IMG/VR virus record: IMGVR_UViG_3300044816_000082
Span: 26,881 to 90,880 of that record
Length of the DNA: 64,000 bases
Source of the DNA: a virus
Strand: one strand, 5' to 3'
Below the pieces are notes generated by a model, which made no database searches, had not been told where the DNA came from, and was given only the letters and a program-made list of their open reading frames with translations. A program made the translations under genes and the position numbers. Shown here one piece after another: positions 38,646-52,675 of this stretch; the first letter of the stretch is position 1, and each line of letters opens with the position of its first letter.

Positions 38646-38879
38646 GTGACGACACCTGACCCCCCCAACACGGGGGTACCCACGACACGCGTCGGGCTGG
38701 GGTTCGTGATCGCTCTGGTCGACGCGGTCGCGTTGCTGCTGATCGTGGCCGGGTCGGTCCTTGCCTGCGTGGCCGGGTGGATCGGGGCCGGCCGGGTGGG
38801 ACTTCTCGCTGTCCTTGGAGGTGTGCTGCTGCTCCTCGGCATCCTGCTCGGTCTGACCGGAGGCGACGATGGCACGTAG
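38646..38879 (+). CDS. small 2-TM membrane protein
   Basis: Long hydrophobic stretches; directly upstream of the portal. Confidence 0.65.
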   Translation: MTTPDPPNTGVPTTRVGLGFVIALVDAVALLLIVAGSVLACVAGWIGAGRVGLLAVLGGVLLLLGILLGLTGGDDGT

Positions 38880-41800
38880 GTTCCTGTCAGGGGTGCAACT
38901 CAAAGGACGGCCGCTGCAGACCGTGCTTCCGTCGGGGGCCGTTGATGTGCACGGTGGACCTCGGGAGCGTAAGGAACTGGTCTTGTCGTCCTACTTCGGG
39001 GGCGGTCTGGTCAGCGCGAACCCGGCAGGGCCGGCGGGGAAGGCATGGACGTGGCAGCGGGGAGTGGTCGAGGGATACAGCCGGGTCGTGTGGTGCTACC
39101 GGGCGGTGGAGGTCCTCGCGGGGGTCTACAGCAGGCTCCCGCTGATGGTCGCGGACATCCTCACGCTCGGGGCCGATCGTGAACCGGAGCTCGTCTTGGA
39201 CGACCCGCTCCTGCCGTTGCTGAGCCAGTACGGACACGCGAACCCGGTCGAGACTGGGCAGCAGTACCGGCACCGCAAGGCGCAGCAGGTGCTGCTGAGC
39301 CCGCGCGGGACGTTCACGGAGGTACTCAAAAGCCGCGGCGGGACGCCCCTGTCGCTGACGCTGCTGCCCCCTGGCCGGACCAGGATCGTCGCGGCGAAGG
39401 ACGGGAGCATCGACCACTACGAGGTCGACCCGCACCGGCCCGGCGACAGGATCCGACCGATCGAACCCGATCTTGTGCTGTGGGACCGGGACCCGCACCC
39501 CGACAACCCCTACGCTGGGATGACGCCCCTCGAGGCGGCGGGGTTGACGTTGGAGACCGATCACTTCGCGCGCCTGTTCAACCGGTCCTACCTCGCGAAC
39601 GACGACGGGGTCGCAACGATCGTCGGGGTCGAACCCTCCGATGACGACAGCGGTGAGCTCAGCGAGGAGGAAAGCGAACGGATCGAACGCAAGATCGGGG
39701 GCAACGGGGTCCTCGACGCCGGCCGGACCATCGTCGTCGACGGGAAGGTCACGATGGTCGATGTGGGCCGTACCCCCCGCGATGCGTCGTACGGCGAGCT
39801 GCGCCTCGCAGGCCGGGACGAGATCAGCATCGCCTTCTACGTGCCCTTGTCGAAGATGGGCGACGCCTCGGGGCGGACCTATGCGAACGCAGGTCAGGAA
39901 GATGACAACTGGTGGCCGGAACGGGTAGCGCCGTTCGCGGACGCCCGCGCGGGCGCGTACAACCCCCTCACCGACGATGGGCTCGCGGTCATCCCGGACT
40001 ACAGCCGCGTGGAGGCGCTCAACAACCTGCGCCGCAAGCGTCGGGAGGAGATGTCCGCGGAGGTCACCGCCGGGCTGCGGACCCCGCTGTCCTACGCCCG
40101 CCGAACCGGGCAGCTCGGCACCGGGGACTTCCCCGACGTCCCCGGTACCCGGGTGCTGTGGCGCACCGGTGGTGTCCCGATCGGGGATCCCGCCGATGTT
40201 GCGGAGGCCGAGAAACTCACGATCATCTCCGCGCCTGTCGCGCCACCCGCCACGGGCACTCAACCCCTATCGGTACCGCCGGCGAACGTCCCAACGCCCG
40301 TGGAGGGTAAGCGTGCCGCACGAGCGCACCACACGAAAGCGGGACCGGGCCGTGACCAGGACGACGACGCGGAGGATGATCGAGCGGCGCTGGACGCCGC
40401 GGTTGAGGGGGCGCTCGCGGCACTGGCGACCCGCCAGACCGATCAGGCACTCGCGCGACTGAGTGGCGTCAAGGCGCGCCGCGACACCCGGTATTGGAAC
40501 CCCCCGGGTCGTAAAACGATCAATCCCGACGACGTCGCGGACCCGGAGGTGTGGGCGCAGCAGGCGTACGACGCGACTGCTCCGCTCCTCGCTCAAGGCG
40601 CCGCGCAGGCCGGTGTCGGGACCTACGATCAGCTCGCAGCGCAGGGCGTCGACGTCGCCCCCGAGGAACTCCCACCGGAGGAAACGTCCGACCCGCTCAT
40701 CGATGCGCTCGTCACGGTCGCTATGGCCGCGATCGGGACCGCCCCCATGACGGTCCCCGCCGCGGCGGTCCCGATCATTGCCTACCTCGCGGGGCGGGGA
40801 GCGTTCGAGGCGGCGCAGGTCATCGCGGACGCGGCGCGGGCCCGCGCTGAGCGGGTACGGGCTGCGCTCGCTGAGGCGCAGCACCTCGCTCCGCTCGCCG
40901 GCCGGGACGCCCTCACGCCCGTGCAGGACGCTGTACGAGTCGCCGCTGGGGACGCCCTGGCGTGGGCGAAACGTAACGCCACCGTCGCGGTCACCGCCGC
41001 CGTCGAAGGGACCCGTACCCGGATTCTTACCGCTGCTGGGGACCGCGTCGAGCGGATCTGGCGGACCCGCCGCGATGACAAGGTCCGTCCGGCGCATGAG
41101 GAAGCGGAGGGGCAGGTCCGGCGTGCTGCGGCGCCGTTCGACGTCGGTGGGGAGGAACTCCGCTGGCCCGGCGACCCCCTCGGGAGTCCGGAGAACATCA
41201 TCAACTGTGTTCCGCCCTGGCAGACCGTCAGCCCTGTCGGGGACTTGCTCGCGGTGCTACGGGCGCCCTATGACGGGCTGCTCTACACGGTGACGACGCG
41301 GAGCGGCCGCGTCCTGTCCGGTACAGCGCAGCACCCTGCACTCACCGACCGAGGATGGGTCGGCCTCAGCAGCCTGAGCATGGGCGACCACCTCATCGGC
41401 GAGGCGCTCGGACAGGCACGTCACGCCGGGACCAAGGGCGACCCCGCGGGCACACCAGACGTACAGGACGCGCCAACCCGCGCCGACGAGCTGTTCCATG
41501 CGGTCGCTCAAGCGGGGAACCAACAGCGGGTGGCCCGGCTGGCGGTGAACCTCCACGGCGACCTGGCCGATGGTGATGTCGACGTTGTAGCGACCGACTG
41601 CGACTTGCCTCCCGAGAACGACCCCACGCTCGCGGAGCAGATCGCACAGTTCGTCTTCACCGAGGTTCACCCGGCCGTCACGCTGCCGAGTGACAGCCCG
41701 CGCAGCCATCGACTCGTCGGTGTCGCGCTGTCCGCGGCGCGCAGCGTGAGCCGCGGCAGCGAGTGTCCGGCGGTCGTCGGGGCTGGTACGCGCCATGCGG

Positions 41801-44325
41801 GTCAACATGGCGTCACCCCGACCCCGGATAGGCACGCCCTCGCGCTCGAAACGTCGGCGCAGCGCGTCCCGGCTCACTCCGAGTTCGCGGGCGAGGGCAT
41901 TCTCGGACTCTCCGGCGAGGTACCTGTCGGAGATCCCCTCGGGCAGGGTCAGGTGACGACGCTTCCCGCGCAGAGGGATACCCGCCTCACGGATCACGTC
42001 GTAGACCCTGGTCAGGGACTGGTGGAGGTCCCGGGCGATCTCGCCGACGTTCTGCCCTTCGACGTAGCGACGGACGAGATCGTCTCGATCGACTCGCGCT
42101 GGTATCGCGGTCACGTCTACACCCTCCACACAAGCACCGGCATCTACCTCACAGACGGGCTGTCGAGTCGTAACTGCCGCTGTCGCGTATCTTACCGGAT
42201 CCGGCGCAAGGGCGTCCCGTACGTCAAGGCCCTCGAGGGCGAGCTCGAGGGCAAGGTGTTCGAGGAGGACAAGCACCCCCGCGGGTTCCACGGACGGTTC
42301 GGGCACGTCGTCAAGACCGAAGCAGAGGGGCTGTCCGACGCCCTCGAGGTCCACCACGCCCCGAGCGGTCCTGAGGAAATGACCGCGGAGTCGCTGCACG
42401 CGCGGGCGCGGAAGGGCGAGAAGCTCGCTGGTCGGACCGTGACGCTGCTCGGCGCGACGTCCGGGGATCCCTACGACGTGACCCTCACGCGGGAGCCGCA
42501 GGTCCACCCTGACGGGATCGTTCTGAACTTCCACCGCGGCTACGACGCCGACGGGGAACTGCGGGTCGGGCAGCGAAAGCTCGAACCCGACGAGGTGATC
42601 CACCTGCACCCGGCCGTGATCGCTGACGTCATGCACGGCGCCGACCCGACGCATCACGCCCTCGGGGGTGAGGGTCACCTGCAGCTCCCCGAGGGGATCC
42701 GGCGGGGCAAGAACCACGTCCGGGCCGTCGCTGCTGCACGTGCCGTCATCGGGGAACGTCCAGGTCGGCGCCTGCGGACCCCCGAGAACGACAGTGAGGT
42801 CGAGCGGTACAACGGTCTCATCGCGATCAACCAGGAGGGGGTCGACAGGTGGAAGCACGCCCTCGCGACGGGGATCGTGCCGATCGACAACGCCGGCGGG
42901 CAGGAGGGCGTCAAGTTCGGGTCGCGGCGAGACGAGTACGGGCTGCACACGAGCAGGTCGGAGGCGCAGGACTACCTCGATCAGTACCAGGGGACCGTCG
43001 ATCGGATTACCGCGAAACGCGATGAGTACCTCGCCTTCCTGCACAAGCAGAACGTCTATCCGCAGGGTGGGCGGTGGGAGTACGACACCGACACCGGTCA
43101 CGCGCATCTCACGGCGGTCCTTTCGGCGGGGAAGACCCTCGACGCGAAAGCGACCCGCAGAGCTGACCGGGCGATCTTGGCCGAAGGTGTCAACGACGCC
43201 GCGGTCCGGGCTCGTCTGGACGTGATCGAGGCTGAGTTCACCGCAGCTCGGCGTGCGCGCAGCGCCGTCCTCGAGTCCCTGGCCGGGAAGGACGACATTG
43301 AGGCGCGTAAGGCGGTGCTCGACGCGCTTCCACAGACCCACCCGCAGGTGTACGCCCGGTTCGAGGCTGCGTTCGCAGCATCAGAGGCCGCCGCTGGCGC
43401 GTGGACAGAGGCGTGGTCCCGGCGCAACGAGATCACCCGGCAGGCGTACCTCGAGGTCCTGCATGAGGTCCGGCCGATGGGTGCCGGTGACACCGGCGGG
43501 CACGACCTGCTCGCAGAGGGCATGAGAGGGACGTACAGCGGACGGGTGCGTGACCTCAAGGTCGGGGACAGGTTCCCCTACGCAGATGATCCGCAGGGCG
43601 GGCGCAGGTACCGGGTCGTGCAGGCCACCCGACCCGACCCGGACAATCCCGGGAAGTGGCTCGTCACGACCGCCGATGAGGACGGGACACGGGCGCTTGA
43701 GGGACGGTTCTACGCTGATGAGCATGTTGAGCTCGACCCGCCGAAAGGATGGGTCCCGTCCCCGACTGCGGGTGAGAGCAACGCGATCATCGCGCTGCGC
43801 GCCGCGGAACGGTTCTACCCGACGTCGTGGATCGCGGCGAGCCGCGGGACCGGGCAGATGCGCGTGGGACATGTCGAGCGTGGGTTCTACAGCGCGGAGA
43901 AGGCCGTCATCGCCCTGTCAGGTACCGACGCCGACCTGAACCGGGTCGCGGTCCACGAGCTCGGGCACCGCGCTGAGTACACCGTCGATGGGCTGATGAC
44001 GTTGGAGTTCCAACTCCACTACGAGCGGACCGCGACGAAGCCTGGTGCGAAGGTGCATCCCCGCAACGAGCTCCGACAACTCGACGGCTACCCCACCGGG
44101 GAGGTCGCGCAGGCCGATCAGTACCCCACGGCGTACAGCGGCCGGGTGTACGGCAGGGGCCGGCCCGAGAACGCCTGGGAGGTGTTCTCGACCACCATCG
44201 AGTCGCTGTTCGGGGGCAGCTCGCATGCTGATGAGCAGATGCGCCAGTTCGGGCTGGGTGTCCTCGCGACCCTCGGGCCGGCGAGCGCGGCCCCGCCGAC
44301 GTTCGTGCCAGACGTGCGTCCGTAG
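38869..44325 (+). CDS. portal protein - MuF fusion with intein and C-terminal HExxH metallopeptidase-like domain
   Basis: HK97-like portal N-terminus (YAGMTPLEAA, EISIAF.VP..MG...RTYAN); MuF WRTRRDDKVRPAH...PF.VGGE.LRWPGDP.G.PENIINCRC after splicing; HELGH at 43954-43968. Confidence 0.88.
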   Translation: MARRFLSGVQLKGRPLQTVLPSGAVDVHGGPRERKELVLSSYFGGGLVSANPAGPAGKAWTWQRGVVEGYSRVVWCYRAVEVLAGVYSRLPLMVADILTLGADREPELVLDDPLLPLLSQYGHANPVETGQQYRHRKAQQVLLSPRGTFTEVLKSRGGTPLSLTLLPPGRTRIVAAKDGSIDHYEVDPHRPGDRIRPIEPDLVLWDRDPHPDNPYAGMTPLEAAGLTLETDHFARLFNRSYLANDDGVATIVGVEPSDDDSGELSEEESERIERKIGGNGVLDAGRTIVVDGKVTMVDVGRTPRDASYGELRLAGRDEISIAFYVPLSKMGDASGRTYANAGQEDDNWWPERVAPFADARAGAYNPLTDDGLAVIPDYSRVEALNNLRRKRREEMSAEVTAGLRTPLSYARRTGQLGTGDFPDVPGTRVLWRTGGVPIGDPADVAEAEKLTIISAPVAPPATGTQPLSVPPANVPTPVEGKRAARAHHTKAGPGRDQDDDAEDDRAALDAAVEGALAALATRQTDQALARLSGVKARRDTRYWNPPGRKTINPDDVADPEVWAQQAYDATAPLLAQGAAQAGVGTYDQLAAQGVDVAPEELPPEETSDPLIDALVTVAMAAIGTAPMTVPAAAVPIIAYLAGRGAFEAAQVIADAARARAERVRAALAEAQHLAPLAGRDALTPVQDAVRVAAGDALAWAKRNATVAVTAAVEGTRTRILTAAGDRVERIWRTRRDDKVRPAHEEAEGQVRRAAAPFDVGGEELRWPGDPLGSPENIINCVPPWQTVSPVGDLLAVLRAPYDGLLYTVTTRSGRVLSGTAQHPALTDRGWVGLSSLSMGDHLIGEALGQARHAGTKGDPAGTPDVQDAPTRADELFHAVAQAGNQQRVARLAVNLHGDLADGDVDVVATDCDLPPENDPTLAEQIAQFVFTEVHPAVTLPSDSPRSHRLVGVALSAARSVSRGSECPAVVGAGTRHAGQHGVTPTPDRHALALETSAQRVPAHSEFAGEGILGLSGEVPVGDPLGQGQVTTLPAQRDTRLTDHVVDPGQGLVEVPGDLADVLPFDVATDEIVSIDSRWYRGHVYTLHTSTGIYLTDGLSSRNCRCRVSYRIRRKGVPYVKALEGELEGKVFEEDKHPRGFHGRFGHVVKTEAEGLSDALEVHHAPSGPEEMTAESLHARARKGEKLAGRTVTLLGATSGDPYDVTLTREPQVHPDGIVLNFHRGYDADGELRVGQRKLEPDEVIHLHPAVIADVMHGADPTHHALGGEGHLQLPEGIRRGKNHVRAVAAARAVIGERPGRRLRTPENDSEVERYNGLIAINQEGVDRWKHALATGIVPIDNAGGQEGVKFGSRRDEYGLHTSRSEAQDYLDQYQGTVDRITAKRDEYLAFLHKQNVYPQGGRWEYDTDTGHAHLTAVLSAGKTLDAKATRRADRAILAEGVNDAAVRARLDVIEAEFTAARRARSAVLESLAGKDDIEARKAVLDALPQTHPQVYARFEAAFAASEAAAGAWTEAWSRRNEITRQAYLEVLHEVRPMGAGDTGGHDLLAEGMRGTYSGRVRDLKVGDRFPYADDPQGGRRYRVVQATRPDPDNPGKWLVTTADEDGTRALEGRFYADEHVELDPPKGWVPSPTAGESNAIIALRAAERFYPTSWIAASRGTGQMRVGHVERGFYSAEKAVIALSGTDADLNRVAVHELGHRAEYTVDGLMTLEFQLHYERTATKPGAKVHPRNELRQLDGYPTGEVAQADQYPTAYSGRVYGRGRPENAWEVFSTTIESLFGGSSHADEQMRQFGLGVLATLGPASAAPPTFVPDVRP
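41206..42174 (+). mobile_element. intein (323 aa) in the MuF NCRC motif
   Basis: N-terminal Cys (CVPPWQTV), block B GTAQHPALT.RGW, block F VYTLHT, ends ...SSRN followed by Cys. Confidence 0.88.
41257..42114 (-). CDS. antisense HTH-HTH-DUF559/Vsr-like endonuclease nested in the intein
   Basis: GTG start with GGAGG 8 nt upstream; two RY..G.S...ARxLxxS repeats; GEDEL..LL.ERG....QVAVGRYNVD....VAVEV...GWRVLYVW. Confidence 0.8.
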   Translation of the reverse strand: MTAIPARVDRDDLVRRYVEGQNVGEIARDLHQSLTRVYDVIREAGIPLRGKRRHLTLPEGISDRYLAGESENALARELGVSRDALRRRFEREGVPIRGRGDAMLTRMARTSPDDRRTLAAAAHAARRGQRDTDESMAARAVTRQRDGRVNLGEDELCDLLRERGVVLGRQVAVGRYNVDITIGQVAVEVHRQPGHPLLVPRLSDRMEQLVGAGWRVLYVWCARGVALGPGVTCLSERLADEVVAHAQAAEADPSSVGECRVLRCTGQDAAAPRRHRVEQPVIGRP

Positions 44326-48553: not shown

Positions 48554-48574
48554 CAGCTAACGGAGAGGGAGGCC

Positions 48575-48946
48575 ATGAGCGCAATCAGCGACGCGGTCGC
48601 GTCCAAGAAGGGGAAGGAGCTCGTCGACTTCCTCGCGACCTACCCGTACGACCCGGTGCCCCGGCGCACGGTGCCGGCCGTCGGCAGCCCCGCGTACGGC
48701 GACTGGTACAACGACGTGGCCGAACCGGGGGGTGGCTACATCCCGAACACCTGGGATGAGGTCGACTACCTGCACGACACCAAGGTGCTCGACAACGACA
48801 CGTACTACGCGGCGCTCAAGGCCCGGACCGCCGGGTGGAAACCGGCCGGCGGTCCCGCGGGGACTGAGGTCGAAGCCGAACCCGGGGAGGGCAAACCCGC
48901 CCCCGACGAGGCGAAGCGGCTCACGTTCGTCCGCCCCCCTGCGTAG
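48575..48946 (+). CDS. small acidic protein, candidate zeta antitoxin
   Basis: Directly downstream of zeta with its own promoter motif; SD GGGAGG. Confidence 0.65.
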   Translation: MSAISDAVASKKGKELVDFLATYPYDPVPRRTVPAVGSPAYGDWYNDVAEPGGGYIPNTWDEVDYLHDTKVLDNDTYYAALKARTAGWKPAGGPAGTEVEAEPGEGKPAPDEAKRLTFVRPPA

Positions 48947-48950
48947 CGGT

Positions 48951-48981
48951 CGCGACGTTGCGCCACGCGCGGTCGTAGCCT
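48951..48981 (+). promoter_or_regulatory. late-type promoter, leaderless
   Basis: CGCGAC-N19-TAGCCT-N7-ATG. Confidence 0.75.
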
Positions 48982-48988
48982 GCGCCGC

Positions 48989-51900
48989 ATGACGACGGCA
49001 ATCGCGGAAGCCTTCCACAAGGCACAACGCGCACCGGGTAGCCCTGAGGACATCACGTACAAGGTCGCGAGCAGGGCCGTCGCCGGGATCCTCACCGGAT
49101 CCGAGGATGGCGTCGTTGAGGCACTCGTGTCGGTTACCGGCATCCCCGACGAGGTCGATGACGTCATCGTCCCCGGCGCCTACGTCCCGAGCCTCAAGGT
49201 CCGCACCCCCAAGGGGGTGTGGAGCCACGACTGGGACGTGTGGGTATCCCGCACGGAGGGCATCGCTGAGCTCATGCCCGGCGACGGGCGGATCCCCGAG
49301 CTCGACCGCAGGGGCAACCCTTGGCCGGCTGAGGCCGGGGCGCTATGGGTCAAGACCCGGTTCAACCTCGGGACCGTCGCCGGGCGCGATGCGTACAGCA
49401 ATGTCCTGTTCTTCGGTGACGAGGTCGAGTGGTGCGTTGATGAGGACACGGAGATCCTCACCGCGCGGGGGTGGCTGCGCTACGACCAGCTCACCACGGA
49501 CGACCACGCCTACGCGCTCGACACCGAGACGCTGACGTCCCGGTTCGAGCCCGTGCAGGCCGTGAACGTCTGGCCCGCCAAGCAGCGCACCTTGCGGCAC
49601 ATCGAGACAGGCGGGTTCTCGTCCCTCACAACCGCTGCGCATCGCTGGCCGACCGTGCAGGTGCGGGACCGTCACGGGGCGGTCCGGTGGCGCACGACCG
49701 AGCAGCTCCGTGCATGGGACAGCCTGTTCCGCTGCGCTCCCCACTTCGAGGCGCCGACCGAGGCTAAGTGGTCGGACGGGCTCGTCGAACTCGTGGCGTG
49801 GGTGTGGTGTGAGGGCTGGCGCGCCGCCGACACCCTGTTCATCGGGCAGTCACACGCGGTGAACCCCGAGAAGGTCGGAGCGATCCGGCGCGCGCTCGCC
49901 ACGACCTTCCCGGGCGCGTGGAGTGACGGCACCGCCGATGGGGGCATGACGCGGTTCCGGCTGCACAAGGCCGCGGCCGCTGTCATCGAAGGCTGCATCG
50001 GCCCCGACAAGGAACCGACCCCTGAGTTCCTGCTCGCCCTCACCCCCGCGCAACTACGTCTGCTCGTTGAGCGCTGCCTCGACGGCGACGGAACCCGCAC
50101 CCCGTCTGGACAGCGCACGTGGTCGCAGGTCGCACAGGCCGGGGTCGACGCCTTCCAGATGGCGTGCGCCCTTGGCGGCATCCCGACGCAGACGCATCCC
50201 GGCAAGGACTACGGCAACAGGTTCGGTCGCGCCCCGCAGACCGTAGGACTACTCCGCAAGGGCGTCACGGCGCCGCTCGCGAGCATCGCGACGAAGTCGT
50301 ACGGCTACAAGCCCGGCCCGGCCAAGACCCCCGCGATCGACCAGCTCGTCACGCACGAGGGCATCGTGTGGTGCCCAACGACCCCGAGCGGAACGTGGCT
50401 CGCCCGCCGCAACGGGTCGGTGTACTTCACCGGCAACTCCGTCGGGTACAACGTGCCGTCCGGCAAGAGCCGGAAGGTCAACGGCAAGCGCCTGATCTAC
50501 TACATGGACACCTTCGAGTATTGCCCGGTGCTGTTCGGGGCAGCGCCGTTGTCCGGGACCGTCGCGCTCGGGGAACGTAAGCGGCGCGCTGGGGAACAGA
50601 CCCTCGATGTGCAGCTCGCGCTCGAGGGGAAGAACCTCGCGGACAACCTCGACCTCGAGGGCAAGAGCAAAACCGGGGTCGATACCCACCCGGTCGGTGC
50701 CGAACGTCTCGCGGAGTATTGGGAGCACGGCGAGGGCGCCGCGAAGATCGCATGGGGGACCGATGGGGACCTCATGCGCTGCGTAGACCTCGTCGTCGAG
50801 CACGCCCACATGACGCCGGAAAAGGCGAAGGGTTACTGCTTCGCGGGTGAGACGGAGATCCTGACGCGCGATGGGATCGTCTCGCTCGGGGAGTCTGCTG
50901 GCACGGACGTGTGGGTGCTGACGGCCCCTGACCCGACAGGTCCCCACTCGCAGCCCGTCCGGCGCGACGGCCGATGGGTGCAGGCTGAGGTCCACGACTT
51001 CGGCGAGCAGCCCGTGCTCAGCGTCACACTCCGTCGGGGCAAGCAGCGGCAGACGATCCGAGCGACCGCTGAGCACACATGGTTCGCCTCCCCCGACTCC
51101 AAGAGCCGACGACGGCTCGCGGTTCAGGCCGTGCAGACCGCCGACTTGCGACCCGGTATGTCCCTCGCCGCGCTGCTGCCGAAGGCACCTACATCGGACC
51201 GGGTCGTCTCGCCCTTCGGGGTCGCGGCAGGGGCCGTGTTCGGAGACGGGCACACCGTGCCGGGTCAGGGCGCGCAGATCGACCTGTGGGGGGACAAGGA
51301 CGCGGAGCTGCTGCGCTACTTCGACGGCTGCAGCCAGTCGCCGCGCAAGACCAGCAACGGGGTTCCCGGTGTCCGCGTCCGGGGCATCCCCGCCTCGTTC
51401 AAGGCTGCCCCTCGCATGGACGAGGGAGCGGCCTACCTGCTCGGGTGGCTCGCCGGGTATGTGGCCGCCGACGGCACCGTCAGCGAGCTCGGAGTTGTCT
51501 CGCTGTCCTCTGCGCGTCACGAGAACCTGCTGCTCGCCAAGAAGATCGCGGACCGTCTCGGGATTGCCACGGGGCAGATCGGCACCCGTCAGCGGGTGGG
51601 GCTCGGTGACGTACCCACCGACCTGCACAAGATGACGTTCCTGACCGCGACGGTCCCGCCGCAGATGCTCGTGTTGTCCGAGCACAGACGCCGGTTCGAC
51701 GCCGCTCGGGCACGTGCGGGCAAGGAGACGCTGCCCGTCCGATGGGTCGTGGAGTCCGTCGAGGACCTAGGCGAGGTCGAGCGCGTCTACTGCGCCGTCG
51801 TCCCCGACACAGAGACGTTCGCTCTCGCGGACTACCTGTGGGTCCACAACTGCGCGCTGCGCCACCGTGGCGCAACGGGAGGCTGGCCCGGCCACGCCCC

Positions 51901-52675
51901 CGCCGAGGAGGCCGAAGCGGCCGCCAAGAAGGGAAGCAAGATCATGGGCACCGAGACCGAGACGAACGACACCGGGACCACGATCGAGGTCAAGGCGTAC
52001 GGGGTGATCCCGGGGAGCAGGGAAGCGCTCGACGAGGCGCTGCGGGGTGCGTTGGAGGACGCGTTGCTCCCGGAACCTGTCGAGTCCGAGGGTGGGATGA
52101 CGAGCAGGCAGGGGTACCTGAGCATCGACGGGACGTTCCCCGACCACGTGATCTGCACCGTCACCGACTACAGCGACGGGGACAACGACAAGCAGTCCTG
52201 GTCGGTGCCGTACACGATCACCGGGGACGTCGACGGTGATGATGACGATGTGACGCTCGGGGAACCCTCTCCCGTCGAGTTGCAGATCGTTGTCCTGCCC
52301 GACGTCGACAGGGCCGCAGACGACGATGATGAGCAGGTCCCACCGGAGGTCGTGGACGGCGCGAACTTGGCGATGAAGACCCTCGGGGTCTTCCTCGGCA
52401 CGTTGGAGGCGAAAGCGGTGTCGGCCGTCCCGATCGATGACGACAGTGGCGGCAAGGACGCGCAGGACGGCCCGCCCCAACCGAACCCGGTTGCGGGGCA
52501 CCTGATCCGTCGCCTTCGGCTCGCTCACGCGCACCTCGGGAGCGCCCTGGCGAGCATGGGGGTGAGCCCGAACCCGGTCACGATCGGGACCGACGCCAAG
52601 CAGCACCCCGCCGCGGGTGCTGACGAGGACGACGTCGAGCTGCTCCTGACCCGCGCAGCAGCCCTCAACATCTGA
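48989..52675 (+). CDS. HK97-type prohead protease with C-terminal extensions and two inteins
   Basis: VEALVSVTG..D...DVI.PGA, WSHDW, W-SVGY after splicing, EYCPVLFGA. Confidence 0.88.
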   Translation: MTTAIAEAFHKAQRAPGSPEDITYKVASRAVAGILTGSEDGVVEALVSVTGIPDEVDDVIVPGAYVPSLKVRTPKGVWSHDWDVWVSRTEGIAELMPGDGRIPELDRRGNPWPAEAGALWVKTRFNLGTVAGRDAYSNVLFFGDEVEWCVDEDTEILTARGWLRYDQLTTDDHAYALDTETLTSRFEPVQAVNVWPAKQRTLRHIETGGFSSLTTAAHRWPTVQVRDRHGAVRWRTTEQLRAWDSLFRCAPHFEAPTEAKWSDGLVELVAWVWCEGWRAADTLFIGQSHAVNPEKVGAIRRALATTFPGAWSDGTADGGMTRFRLHKAAAAVIEGCIGPDKEPTPEFLLALTPAQLRLLVERCLDGDGTRTPSGQRTWSQVAQAGVDAFQMACALGGIPTQTHPGKDYGNRFGRAPQTVGLLRKGVTAPLASIATKSYGYKPGPAKTPAIDQLVTHEGIVWCPTTPSGTWLARRNGSVYFTGNSVGYNVPSGKSRKVNGKRLIYYMDTFEYCPVLFGAAPLSGTVALGERKRRAGEQTLDVQLALEGKNLADNLDLEGKSKTGVDTHPVGAERLAEYWEHGEGAAKIAWGTDGDLMRCVDLVVEHAHMTPEKAKGYCFAGETEILTRDGIVSLGESAGTDVWVLTAPDPTGPHSQPVRRDGRWVQAEVHDFGEQPVLSVTLRRGKQRQTIRATAEHTWFASPDSKSRRRLAVQAVQTADLRPGMSLAALLPKAPTSDRVVSPFGVAAGAVFGDGHTVPGQGAQIDLWGDKDAELLRYFDGCSQSPRKTSNGVPGVRVRGIPASFKAAPRMDEGAAYLLGWLAGYVAADGTVSELGVVSLSSARHENLLLAKKIADRLGIATGQIGTRQRVGLGDVPTDLHKMTFLTATVPPQMLVLSEHRRRFDAARARAGKETLPVRWVVESVEDLGEVERVYCAVVPDTETFALADYLWVHNCALRHRGATGGWPGHAPAEEAEAAAKKGSKIMGTETETNDTGTTIEVKAYGVIPGSREALDEALRGALEDALLPEPVESEGGMTSRQGYLSIDGTFPDHVICTVTDYSDGDNDKQSWSVPYTITGDVDGDDDDVTLGEPSPVELQIVVLPDVDRAADDDDEQVPPEVVDGANLAMKTLGVFLGTLEAKAVSAVPIDDDSGGKDAQDGPPQPNPVAGHLIRRLRLAHAHLGSALASMGVSPNPVTIGTDAKQHPAAGADEDDVELLLTRAAALNI
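49433..50437 (+). mobile_element. intein 1 (335 aa, LAGLIDADG-type) immediately before the protease Ser
   Basis: CVDEDTEILT.RGW, TTAAHRW, CLDGDG, VWCPTT, ends TGN followed by Ser. Confidence 0.9.
50837..51850 (+). mobile_element. intein 2 (338 aa, LAGLIDADG-type)
   Basis: CFAGETEILTRDG, ATAEHTW, VFGDG, LAGYVAADG, VYCAVV, ends VHN followed by Cys. Confidence 0.92.

Follow-up and report, generated by a model that had tools for sequence, protein, structure and literature searches.

The window analysed here is a stretch of 64,000 nucleotides (nt; about 69% GC) from a complete 90.9-kb phage record in IMG/VR, IMGVR_UViG_3300044816_000082, which has terminal repeats and comes from an uncultured phage. 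It includes a head gene encoding a portal-MuF fusion protein of 1818 amino acids (aa). This gene is interrupted by an intein of 323 aa, and on the strand opposite the intein lies a second open reading frame (ORF), for a predicted nuclease of 285 aa. The original prediction, made from the letters of the sequence, had taken the arrangement for a dual-coding mobile element, with splicing specified by one strand and a separately encoded homing nuclease, composed of helix-turn-helix (HTH) motifs and a Vsr/DUF559-like domain, by the other. The sequence, fold and comparative evidence set out below supports that proposal. In window coordinates, the features of the locus are as follows; pLDDT is the per-residue confidence measure of AlphaFold2 (AF2) models, and dN/dS the ratio of nonsynonymous to synonymous substitution.

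38869-44325, + strand: host gene (extein), portal-MuF fusion protein, 1818 aa (ORF list; Pfam)
41197-41205, + strand: N-extein side of the putative homing site, codons I-I-N (...NIIN|CRC... kept in intein-less relatives; the bar marks the insertion point)
41206-42174, + strand: predicted class-1 intein, 323 aa, Cys1...Asn323 followed by Cys+1 (translation; intein-less relatives; HINT model)
41206-41403, + strand: N-terminal splicing lobe, aa 1-66, blocks A and B, with TAQHP at aa 40-44 (pLDDT 65-90; sense dN/dS 0.02-0.36 in relatives)
41596-42063, + strand: sense-frame linker opposite the nuclease, aa 131-286, stop-free and predicted to be disordered (pLDDT about 30; sense dN/dS about 0.8-1.3 in relatives; no Pfam domain)
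42067-42174, + strand: C-terminal splicing lobe, aa 288-323, blocks F and G (pLDDT 75-92; GHVY-L-T...N|C kept across the family)
42175-42183, + strand: C-extein side of the putative homing site, codons C-R-C (direct reading; intein-less relatives)
41257-42114, - strand: nuclease gene, 285 aa and stop, in exact codon-complement register with the intein (translation; homologues; AF2)
42123-42127, - strand: Shine-Dalgarno-like GGAGG with an 8-nt spacer to the GTG, complement of the block-F codons T-L-H (read directly)
41842-42087, - strand: two tandem HTH motifs, antisense aa 10-91 (Pfam HTH families; AF2 helices at aa 10-91; match to resolvase HTH)
41299-41673, - strand: nuclease core of Vsr/DUF559-like type (antisense aa 148-272), facing aa 32-156 of the intein and with them block B (VIA-align; profile match)
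41530-41580, - strand: predicted catalytic motif D179...E188-V-H190...H195 (invariance in homologues)

The intein on the sense strand

The host ORF runs as one uninterrupted frame across the intein. Its N-terminal part contains a Phage_portal domain (Pfam, 93.8 bits, aa 77-365), and a weak match to Phage_Mu_F is found at aa 708-780, just upstream of the intein. The C-terminal region beyond the intein (aa ~1110-1818) has no Pfam match at E <= 1.

The intein begins with Cys1 and ends in S-S-R-N, after which the extein resumes with Cys-Arg-Cys; block B reads T40-A-Q-H43-P and block F reads G-H-V-Y-T-L-H-T. The pattern of Cys or Ser at position 1, a terminal Asn and Cys, Ser or Thr at +1 is present here and in 20 relatives, and blocks A, B, F and G are kept across 23 loci. 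Nineteen MuF relatives in IMG/VR are uninterrupted across ...IN|CRC..., so that intein-less alleles are at hand, and because these relatives read straight through the site, the boundaries of the intein are exact.

In Pfam the sense insert gives a split Intein_splicing match (22.5 bits against a cut-off of 35.8), and neither a LAGLIDADG nor an HNH domain. An AF2 model made from a 12-sequence alignment is structured at aa 1-66 and 288-323, moderately confident at aa 90-130, and has a pLDDT of about 30 throughout aa 131-286. The structured parts adopt the HINT fold, superimposing on the splicing domain of the Mtu RecA intein (2IN8) with Z 12.6 and a root-mean-square deviation (rmsd) of 1.7 over 107 aa. 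Of the 50 best structure matches, nearly all are intein splicing domains or close HINT relatives (Hedgehog, BIL). Residues, blocks, insertion site and modelled HINT fold agree with assignment as a class-1 intein. Both the placing of a 323-aa intein at the MuF IN|CRC motif and the description of the sense frame between blocks B and F as stop-free, shadow-like and lacking LAGLIDADG or HNH motifs, which had been offered from the letters, are thereby upheld.

A predicted Vsr-like nuclease on the opposite strand

The antisense gene starts with GTG at 42114 and stops at 41259-41257. On re-reading, the coordinates and motifs first given for the intein and this ORF, including the GTG, the GGAGG 8 nt upstream and the length of 285 aa, were all correct. 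Two stretches of the protein match HTH_58 in Pfam (29.8 bits against a cut-off of 23.8), and HTH_38, HTH_28, CENP-B_N and HTH_23 are matched as well. The window protein has a weak match to the MTES_1575 REase family (18 bits, below the cut-off of 38.2). There are 31 metagenomic protein homologues, on 13 of which PF18741 is precomputed; many of the 31 may in turn be ORFs lying antisense within inteins and called from short contigs.

An AF2 model of the 285-aa protein, based on 32 homologues, has a mean pLDDT of 89.9. In VIA-align, antisense aa 148-272 match the Vsr-DNA structure 1CW0 with Z 11.0 and rmsd 2.8 over 110 aa, Vsr 1VSR with Z 10.0, and the catalytic domain of the homing endonuclease I-Bth0305I (3R3P) with Z 9.9 and rmsd 3.1 over 92 aa at about 18% identity; the next unrelated structures reach Z 8.8 or below. 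The N-terminus of the model resembles resolvase-type HTH domains (Z about 7). Foldseek alone returned no match to the model at E <= 0.001, with Vsr at the top at E 0.015. Positions 105-199 of a profile of the nuclease family align with 3HRL, an endonuclease-like protein, at E 2.9e-7. The two HTH repeats and the DUF559/Vsr-like domain that had been read from the translation are thus borne out by the HTH_58, 1CW0 and 3HRL matches.

Residues D179 and E188 are invariant in the 32 homologues, and H190 and H195 in the eight closest. By our own placement, E188 would occupy the position of Phe62 in Vsr. More broadly, D179, E188, H190 and H195 may correspond to Vsr D51, F62, H64 and H69, a pairing based on the motif and Dassa et al. 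2009 (PMC2677866) and not on residue-level superposition.

Four of the homologues (P0012, P0014, P0015 and P0021; columns ~470-521 of alignment A1) have a C-terminal extension with the pattern Cys-His-Cys-Gly-Cys-Gly and a conserved ...P..Y/F.SGH... tail. It may form a zinc ribbon, or may be the shadow cast by another host gene.

Relatives and the conserved arrangement

Searching with the antisense protein by tblastn retrieved 123 phage records, 62 of them from Salmonella phages. The best matches, to Fosterous and Affeca, have an E-value of 1e-43 and 43.6% identity over 90% of the query, and further matches include Vivi2, Angelicage, Malisha, APunk, Sampson and ViaConlectus. At the DNA level the window has no close relatives among phages, blastn yielding only a 66-nt match to Gordonia phages.

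The comparison covered 24 loci (including L004) and three further ones (L045-L047); a locus search was run with a subset alignment of eight sequences, the alignment of 32 lacking a conserved stretch. In 23 of the 24 loci and in all three additional ones the homologue lies inside a long ORF of the opposite strand, giving 26 embedded loci with GC contents from 0.45 to 0.71. The window and all 26 share the same codon-complement register, and the expectation that the antisense frame would persist in homologues is realized, the frame being kept within the intein in 26/26. In 10 of 11 phage records examined the match lies opposite an annotated MuF or head-morphogenesis gene. The embedded form is found in the Gordonia phages Fosterous, Malisha and APunk, a Pseudomonas phage, Cronobacter phage ES2, Edwardsiella phage MSW-3, Klebsiella phage RCIP0015, E. 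coli phage Snoke, Salmonella phage vB_StyS-sam and Mycobacterium phage Sejanus. The nuclease gene is absent or only partly annotated in all 10 of the embedded-form GenBank records examined. In Snoke (L045; MK931441.1, 1390-3249) the intein is annotated (273 aa, PF14890) and the 250-aa antisense nuclease is not; in vB_StyS-sam (L046, 1994-2395) only a 133-aa fragment of the nuclease is annotated, as a hypothetical protein.

The exception is Acinetobacter phage IME285 (L004; MH853786.1, 413-2118), a phage of 39% GC in which a nuclease homologue of 311 aa is free-standing and annotated on the plus strand, and the strand opposite it is closed. This gene is convergent with an intein-less MuF-like gene of 258 aa, the 3' ends of the two overlapping by 7 nt, and the distance from it to the M|CKC site of MuF, where the intein sits in relatives, is about 45 nt.

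The same intein and antisense nuclease are also found in genes other than MuF. They occur in UDG-like genes (L016, 3411-4223; L020 and L021, 3396-4208), with the junctions ...M|C...N|CRPP and ...S|C...N|CHPP, in other exteins (L017, 3396-4238; L023; L018/L019), and in a capsid maturation protease-MuF fusion in Mycobacterium phage Sejanus (L047). Judged by sequence, the unrelated exteins that the element appears to have entered number at least three or four: MuF, UDG-like, the capsid protease-MuF fusion and others. Sporadic presence at one site together with spread to unrelated genes is, on these comparisons, the apparent signature of a homing endonuclease. The free-standing IME285 relative and the variety of exteins are in keeping with the proposal in the literature that a homing endonuclease invaded an intein.

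Selection on the two strands

Antisense codons are exact reverse complements of sense codons, such that sense position 3 is antisense position 1. In this register only TTA, CTA and TCA create stops on the opposite strand, and the overlap is cheap because the nuclease gene need avoid only these three codons, each of which has synonymous alternatives. The probability that a frame lacks TTA, CTA and TCA was calculated from the codon usage of each locus. For the relatives of intermediate GC it is 1.3e-3 for ES2, 4.7e-3 for MSW-3, 7e-4 for RCIP0015, 1.4e-4 for L014, 1.8e-6 for L024 and 3e-4 for Snoke, and the reverse test gives values of 7e-5 to 3e-7 in these relatives. In the relatives of 45-54% GC, the openness of both frames is far beyond chance. 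Counts of CCA (Pro), as the shadow of Trp TGG, are suggestive at some loci and do not make a clean test.

Separate dN/dS ratios (omega, by the Nei-Gojobori method) for each strand across homologues, proposed earlier as a check, give the result that the prediction called for: the constraint flips along the intein. In the splicing lobes of the relatives the sense omega is 0.02-0.36 and the antisense omega about 1, whereas in the insert the antisense omega is 0.17-0.35 and the sense omega 0.8-1.3. A sliding profile agrees. In the closest pair, Fosterous and Angelicage, for which the alignment is unambiguous, divergence at sense positions 1, 2 and 3 is 0.23, 0.03 and 0.12 in the insert, and 0.00, 0.02 and 0.32 in the N lobe. 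Conserved sense motifs of the insert mirror the nuclease codon by codon: NFHGD and VDVV are complementary to VAVEV and YNVD, and two invariant Pro to two Trp. Constraint acts on the sense frame in the splicing lobes and on the antisense frame in the insert. What the data show is the architecture, the folds, the conservation and the direction of selection.

Anatomy of the overlap

The nuclease ORF covers nearly the whole intein, ending 15-72 nt inside its N-terminal end in most loci. It starts opposite the block-F His codon, where CAT yields ATG in 13 loci and CAC yields GTG in seven. Just upstream, most relatives have a Shine-Dalgarno-like GAG(G), read from the strand opposite the Leu codon of block F; this codon is CTC in 15 of 20 loci. 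CTC stands at this Leu in all seven enterobacterial, Pseudomonas and mid-GC members, in which it is not the preferred Leu codon. Neither this preference for CTC nor the occurrence of the rare CAT codon in high-GC phages is more than suggestive.

At the other end of the gene, the Y-R-V-I-R-G strand at the C-terminus of the nuclease is the complement of T-P-N-H-P-V. In the relatives, intein aa 41-60 and 101-120 (window ~41326-41385 and ~41506-41565), each some 20 codons long, have low and even divergence at sense positions 1 and 3, and the stretches next to them differ in divergence pattern. The AF2 model places a moderately confident sense beta-hairpin at aa 105-129, opposite the catalytic domain of the nuclease. 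There are hints here that both strands are constrained in the two stretches, at aa 41-60, where block B lies opposite the C-terminal strand of the nuclease, and at aa 101-120, where the hairpin lies opposite the catalytic motif. These are a lead and not a result.

A model for the element and its alternatives

It is very probable that the locus comprises a cis-splicing intein with a disordered, stop-free loop on the sense strand and, on the minus strand, a separate HTH and Vsr-like homing nuclease whose target is the empty INCRC site. We infer from the evidence above that the antisense gene is transcribed and translated, that the intein splices, and that the nuclease cleaves at this target. In outline, the 323-aa insert would be translated within the portal-MuF precursor, and the lobes at aa 1-66 and 288-323 would form a HINT domain that excises the insert and rejoins ...IIN to CRC.... 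The approximately 155 residues between the lobes would be a disordered loop, of which the sole requirement would be the lack of a stop codon. From the minus-strand gene would come a site-specific nuclease in which two HTH motifs bind DNA and a Vsr/DUF559-type core is catalytic; its translation would begin opposite the block-F His codon, with the ribosome-binding site lying opposite the Leu codon of the same block. During co-infection the nuclease would most likely cut intein-less MuF alleles near the INCRC codons, and repair would copy intein and nuclease together, which is homing. The idea put forward with the original prediction, that nuclease timing is decoupled from late head-gene expression, is a reasonable one; together with the suggestion that the nuclease is thereby kept out of the capsid precursor, it is speculation.

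Several observations weigh against this model or lend it less than they might seem to. The penultimate residue of the intein is Arg and not His, a position that varies across the family. Neither a sigma-70-like promoter nor a terminator was found in 40900-42700 by a scan that did not cover actinophage promoters. The conserved antisense start is weak independent evidence, because a conserved His codon gives ATG or GTG automatically. Comparisons involving the window copy are near saturation (dS > 1), so that its antisense omega of 0.4-0.5 is imprecise, and no close intein-less sibling of the window phage was found. Lastly, the chance of encountering no stop in the window at 69% GC is about 0.37 and about 0.23, and the sense frame is as open as chance gives.

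This last point bears on the proposal that the antisense ORF is a GC-driven shadow frame without a product, the sense insert being a degenerate in-frame endonuclease or a plain linker. A codon-complement frame is usually open at 69% GC; here it is formally open for 694 aa, well beyond the intein, and other antisense ORFs in the window reach 223-478 aa. With a chance probability of about 0.2-0.4, and with other long antisense ORFs that match no family, the open frame was rejected as evidence at the window, and the weight of the case lies in homology, fold and the selection pattern. On these grounds a shadow frame is scarcely conceivable. The other long antisense ORFs have no Pfam match, whereas the nuclease ORF has HTH_58 above its cut-off, a confident Vsr-like model and a DUF559-type profile match. 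It has 31 protein and 123 phage homologues, one of them free-standing in a phage of 39% GC, and its frame is under purifying selection while the sense frame drifts. Alternatively, the nuclease might be real and the head gene 'fractured', with a split intein made as two polypeptides that splice in trans, the open sense frame being incidental. Vsr-like nucleases were first found between the halves of split inteins in phage (PMC2677866), and the openness of the sense frame in the window is, as noted, not beyond chance. In those genes, however, the nuclease is on the same strand between separate ORFs (PMC2677866). Here the sense frame has neither a stop after the N-terminal half nor a start or Shine-Dalgarno sequence before block F, and the mid-GC relatives keep it open against odds of 1e-3 to 2e-6, which makes sense only if ribosomes read through it. 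A fractured gene is thus highly improbable.

The remaining alternatives accept the architecture and differ on what the nuclease does. The window copy could be a fixed, vertically inherited relic, in which the intein splices and the nuclease is inactive or no longer homing. No close sibling with or without the intein was found, the best relatives being about 43% identical in the nuclease; several clusters of VSR-type inteins look vertically inherited according to a recent preprint (bioRxiv 10.1101/2025.01.02.630785); and omega for window pairs is just 0.4-0.5 at saturated distances. Against this, the ORF is intact over 285 codons with start and Shine-Dalgarno sequence present, all family-invariant residues are retained, including D179 and E188, as are H190 and H195, and the model is as confident as that of an ordinary protein. 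A relic is therefore unlikely, and would qualify the model for this particular copy. Two HTH motifs are typical of regulators, and the antisense protein might have taken on a task other than homing, such as regulating transcription or acting as an anti-defence nuclease. Such a role would hardly be expected of a nuclease that accompanies the intein in three or four unrelated exteins at the least, has a free-standing relative adjoining an empty target site, and resembles enzymes of the I-Bth0305I type in its HTH and Vsr-like layout; co-option is accordingly very improbable.

A bolder reading of the homing element concerns the overlap itself, which may amount to more than filler facing a gene: purifying selection would act on the same bases of both strands at intein aa 41-60 and 101-120, and the start codon and ribosome-binding site of the nuclease would be fixed by block F. 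This may be a deeply conserved bifunctional antisense overlap extending from phages of Actinobacteria to those of Gammaproteobacteria, in which intein and nuclease cannot be separated by recombination, and which is far commoner than a survey of actinophages suggests. We consider this a serious possibility, while leaning slightly against it. If it is true, more than 100 GenBank phages have the nuclease unannotated or only partly annotated. In terms of annotation, a real gene is being systematically missed, including in the Jersey-like Salmonella phages used in biocontrol work. More generally, the element shows a selfish nuclease joining an intein without being fused to it, and supports the view of 'splicing first, nuclease invades later', which is backed by the free-standing relative beside an empty target site.

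A second candidate intein in the window

Elsewhere in the window, an ORF of 1228 aa (48989-52675, + strand) has an in-frame LAGLIDADG_3 match at aa 816-861, with a score at the Pfam cut-off, and a weak Intein_splicing match at aa 674-954. The antisense ORFs of this region (50249-51685, 51767-52606 and 48557-49228) have no Pfam match. If the two sequence matches hold, the phage would have a canonical intein with an in-frame nuclease beside the antisense type.

Comparison with known systems

Canonical inteins with an in-frame LAGLIDADG or HNH endonuclease resemble the window element in having a HINT domain and an endonuclease located between N and C lobes. They differ in that the window nuclease is a separate polypeptide of the opposite strand, the in-frame insert being disordered filler. 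The 'fractured genes', in which a free-standing gene for a Vsr-like or GIY-YIG endonuclease lies between the halves of a split intein (Dassa et al. 2009, PMC2677866), are closer in several respects. They share the Vsr-like nuclease, the N-terminal DNA-binding region, the usual position of the homing endonuclease and an occurrence mainly in phages, and where Vsr has Phe62, their Vsr-like family invariably has Glu (PMC2677866). Their host gene, however, is split into two ORFs with the nuclease in the same orientation, whereas the window intein is contiguous and its nuclease antisense. I-Bth0305I (PDB 3R3P; PMC3239194), reported to be a Vsr-like enzyme with experimentally demonstrated homing endonuclease activity and a cleavage site adjacent to its point of insertion, is similar in catalytic fold; it differs in that a group I intron of recA carries its gene.

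The original prediction knew of no description of an intein with its endonuclease on the antisense strand. In this respect it was mistaken: a preprint discussed below describes the arrangement, and antisense LAGLIDADG inteins date from 1998. Those of Synechocystis DnaX and a Chloroflexus SpoVR-like protein (Gorbalenya 1998; Gogarten 2002; both as cited in bioRxiv 10.1101/2025.01.02.630785) likewise consist of a full intein with an endonuclease ORF opposite the insert. They are unlike the window element in that the enzyme is LAGLIDADG and not Vsr/PD-(D/E)XK, and in that their hosts are cellular and not phages.

The arrangement found in the window has itself been reported by Gosselin, Arsenault and Gogarten (bioRxiv 10.1101/2025.01.02.630785). 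They describe inteins with anti-sense VSR-like homing endonucleases ('VSR -1 ORF') in MuF-like minor capsid proteins of actinobacteriophages. In the preprint's version of October 2025, their survey of PhagesDB gave 63 inteins with non-canonical endonucleases, the anti-sense VSR-like ones among them, minor capsid proteins being invaded by non-canonical inteins only. The in-frame insert is without recognisable structure, and for the antisense product they give a Z of 10.6 to Vsr 1CW0, across residues 144-267. Vsr-like nucleases accompanying split inteins are cited there as well, from Dassa 2009. MuF-like genes of the 'VSR -1 ORF' kind are listed in their Supplemental Table 1 for Malisha, Vivi2, Angelicage, Affeca, Fosterous, Sampson, APunk, ViaConlectus, REQ3 and Keitabear, and most of these phages are the best tblastn matches of the window nuclease.

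The window element shares with these inteins the type of extein, the ..IN|CRC.. site, the class-1 intein, the antisense Vsr-like nuclease in frame -1 and the unstructured in-frame insert, and its match to 1CW0 is nearly equal (Z 11.0 over 148-272). It differs from the listed members in its nuclease, which is about 43% identical to theirs, in coming from an uncultured 91-kb phage and in residing in a portal-MuF fusion gene. Membership of proteobacterial phages, the codon-avoidance and dN/dS tests, the start signals in block F and the free-standing Acinetobacter neighbour were not found in the available part of the preprint or in the other literature searched, and no account of an antisense gene was found in literature on the head-morphogenesis intein of Salmonella phages. 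The spread into proteobacterial phages, the selection tests and the start signals in block F are thus added here. As the concept has been published, the locus contributes breadth and tests and not a new principle, and the window element is a new, divergent member of the described family of antisense Vsr-like inteins.

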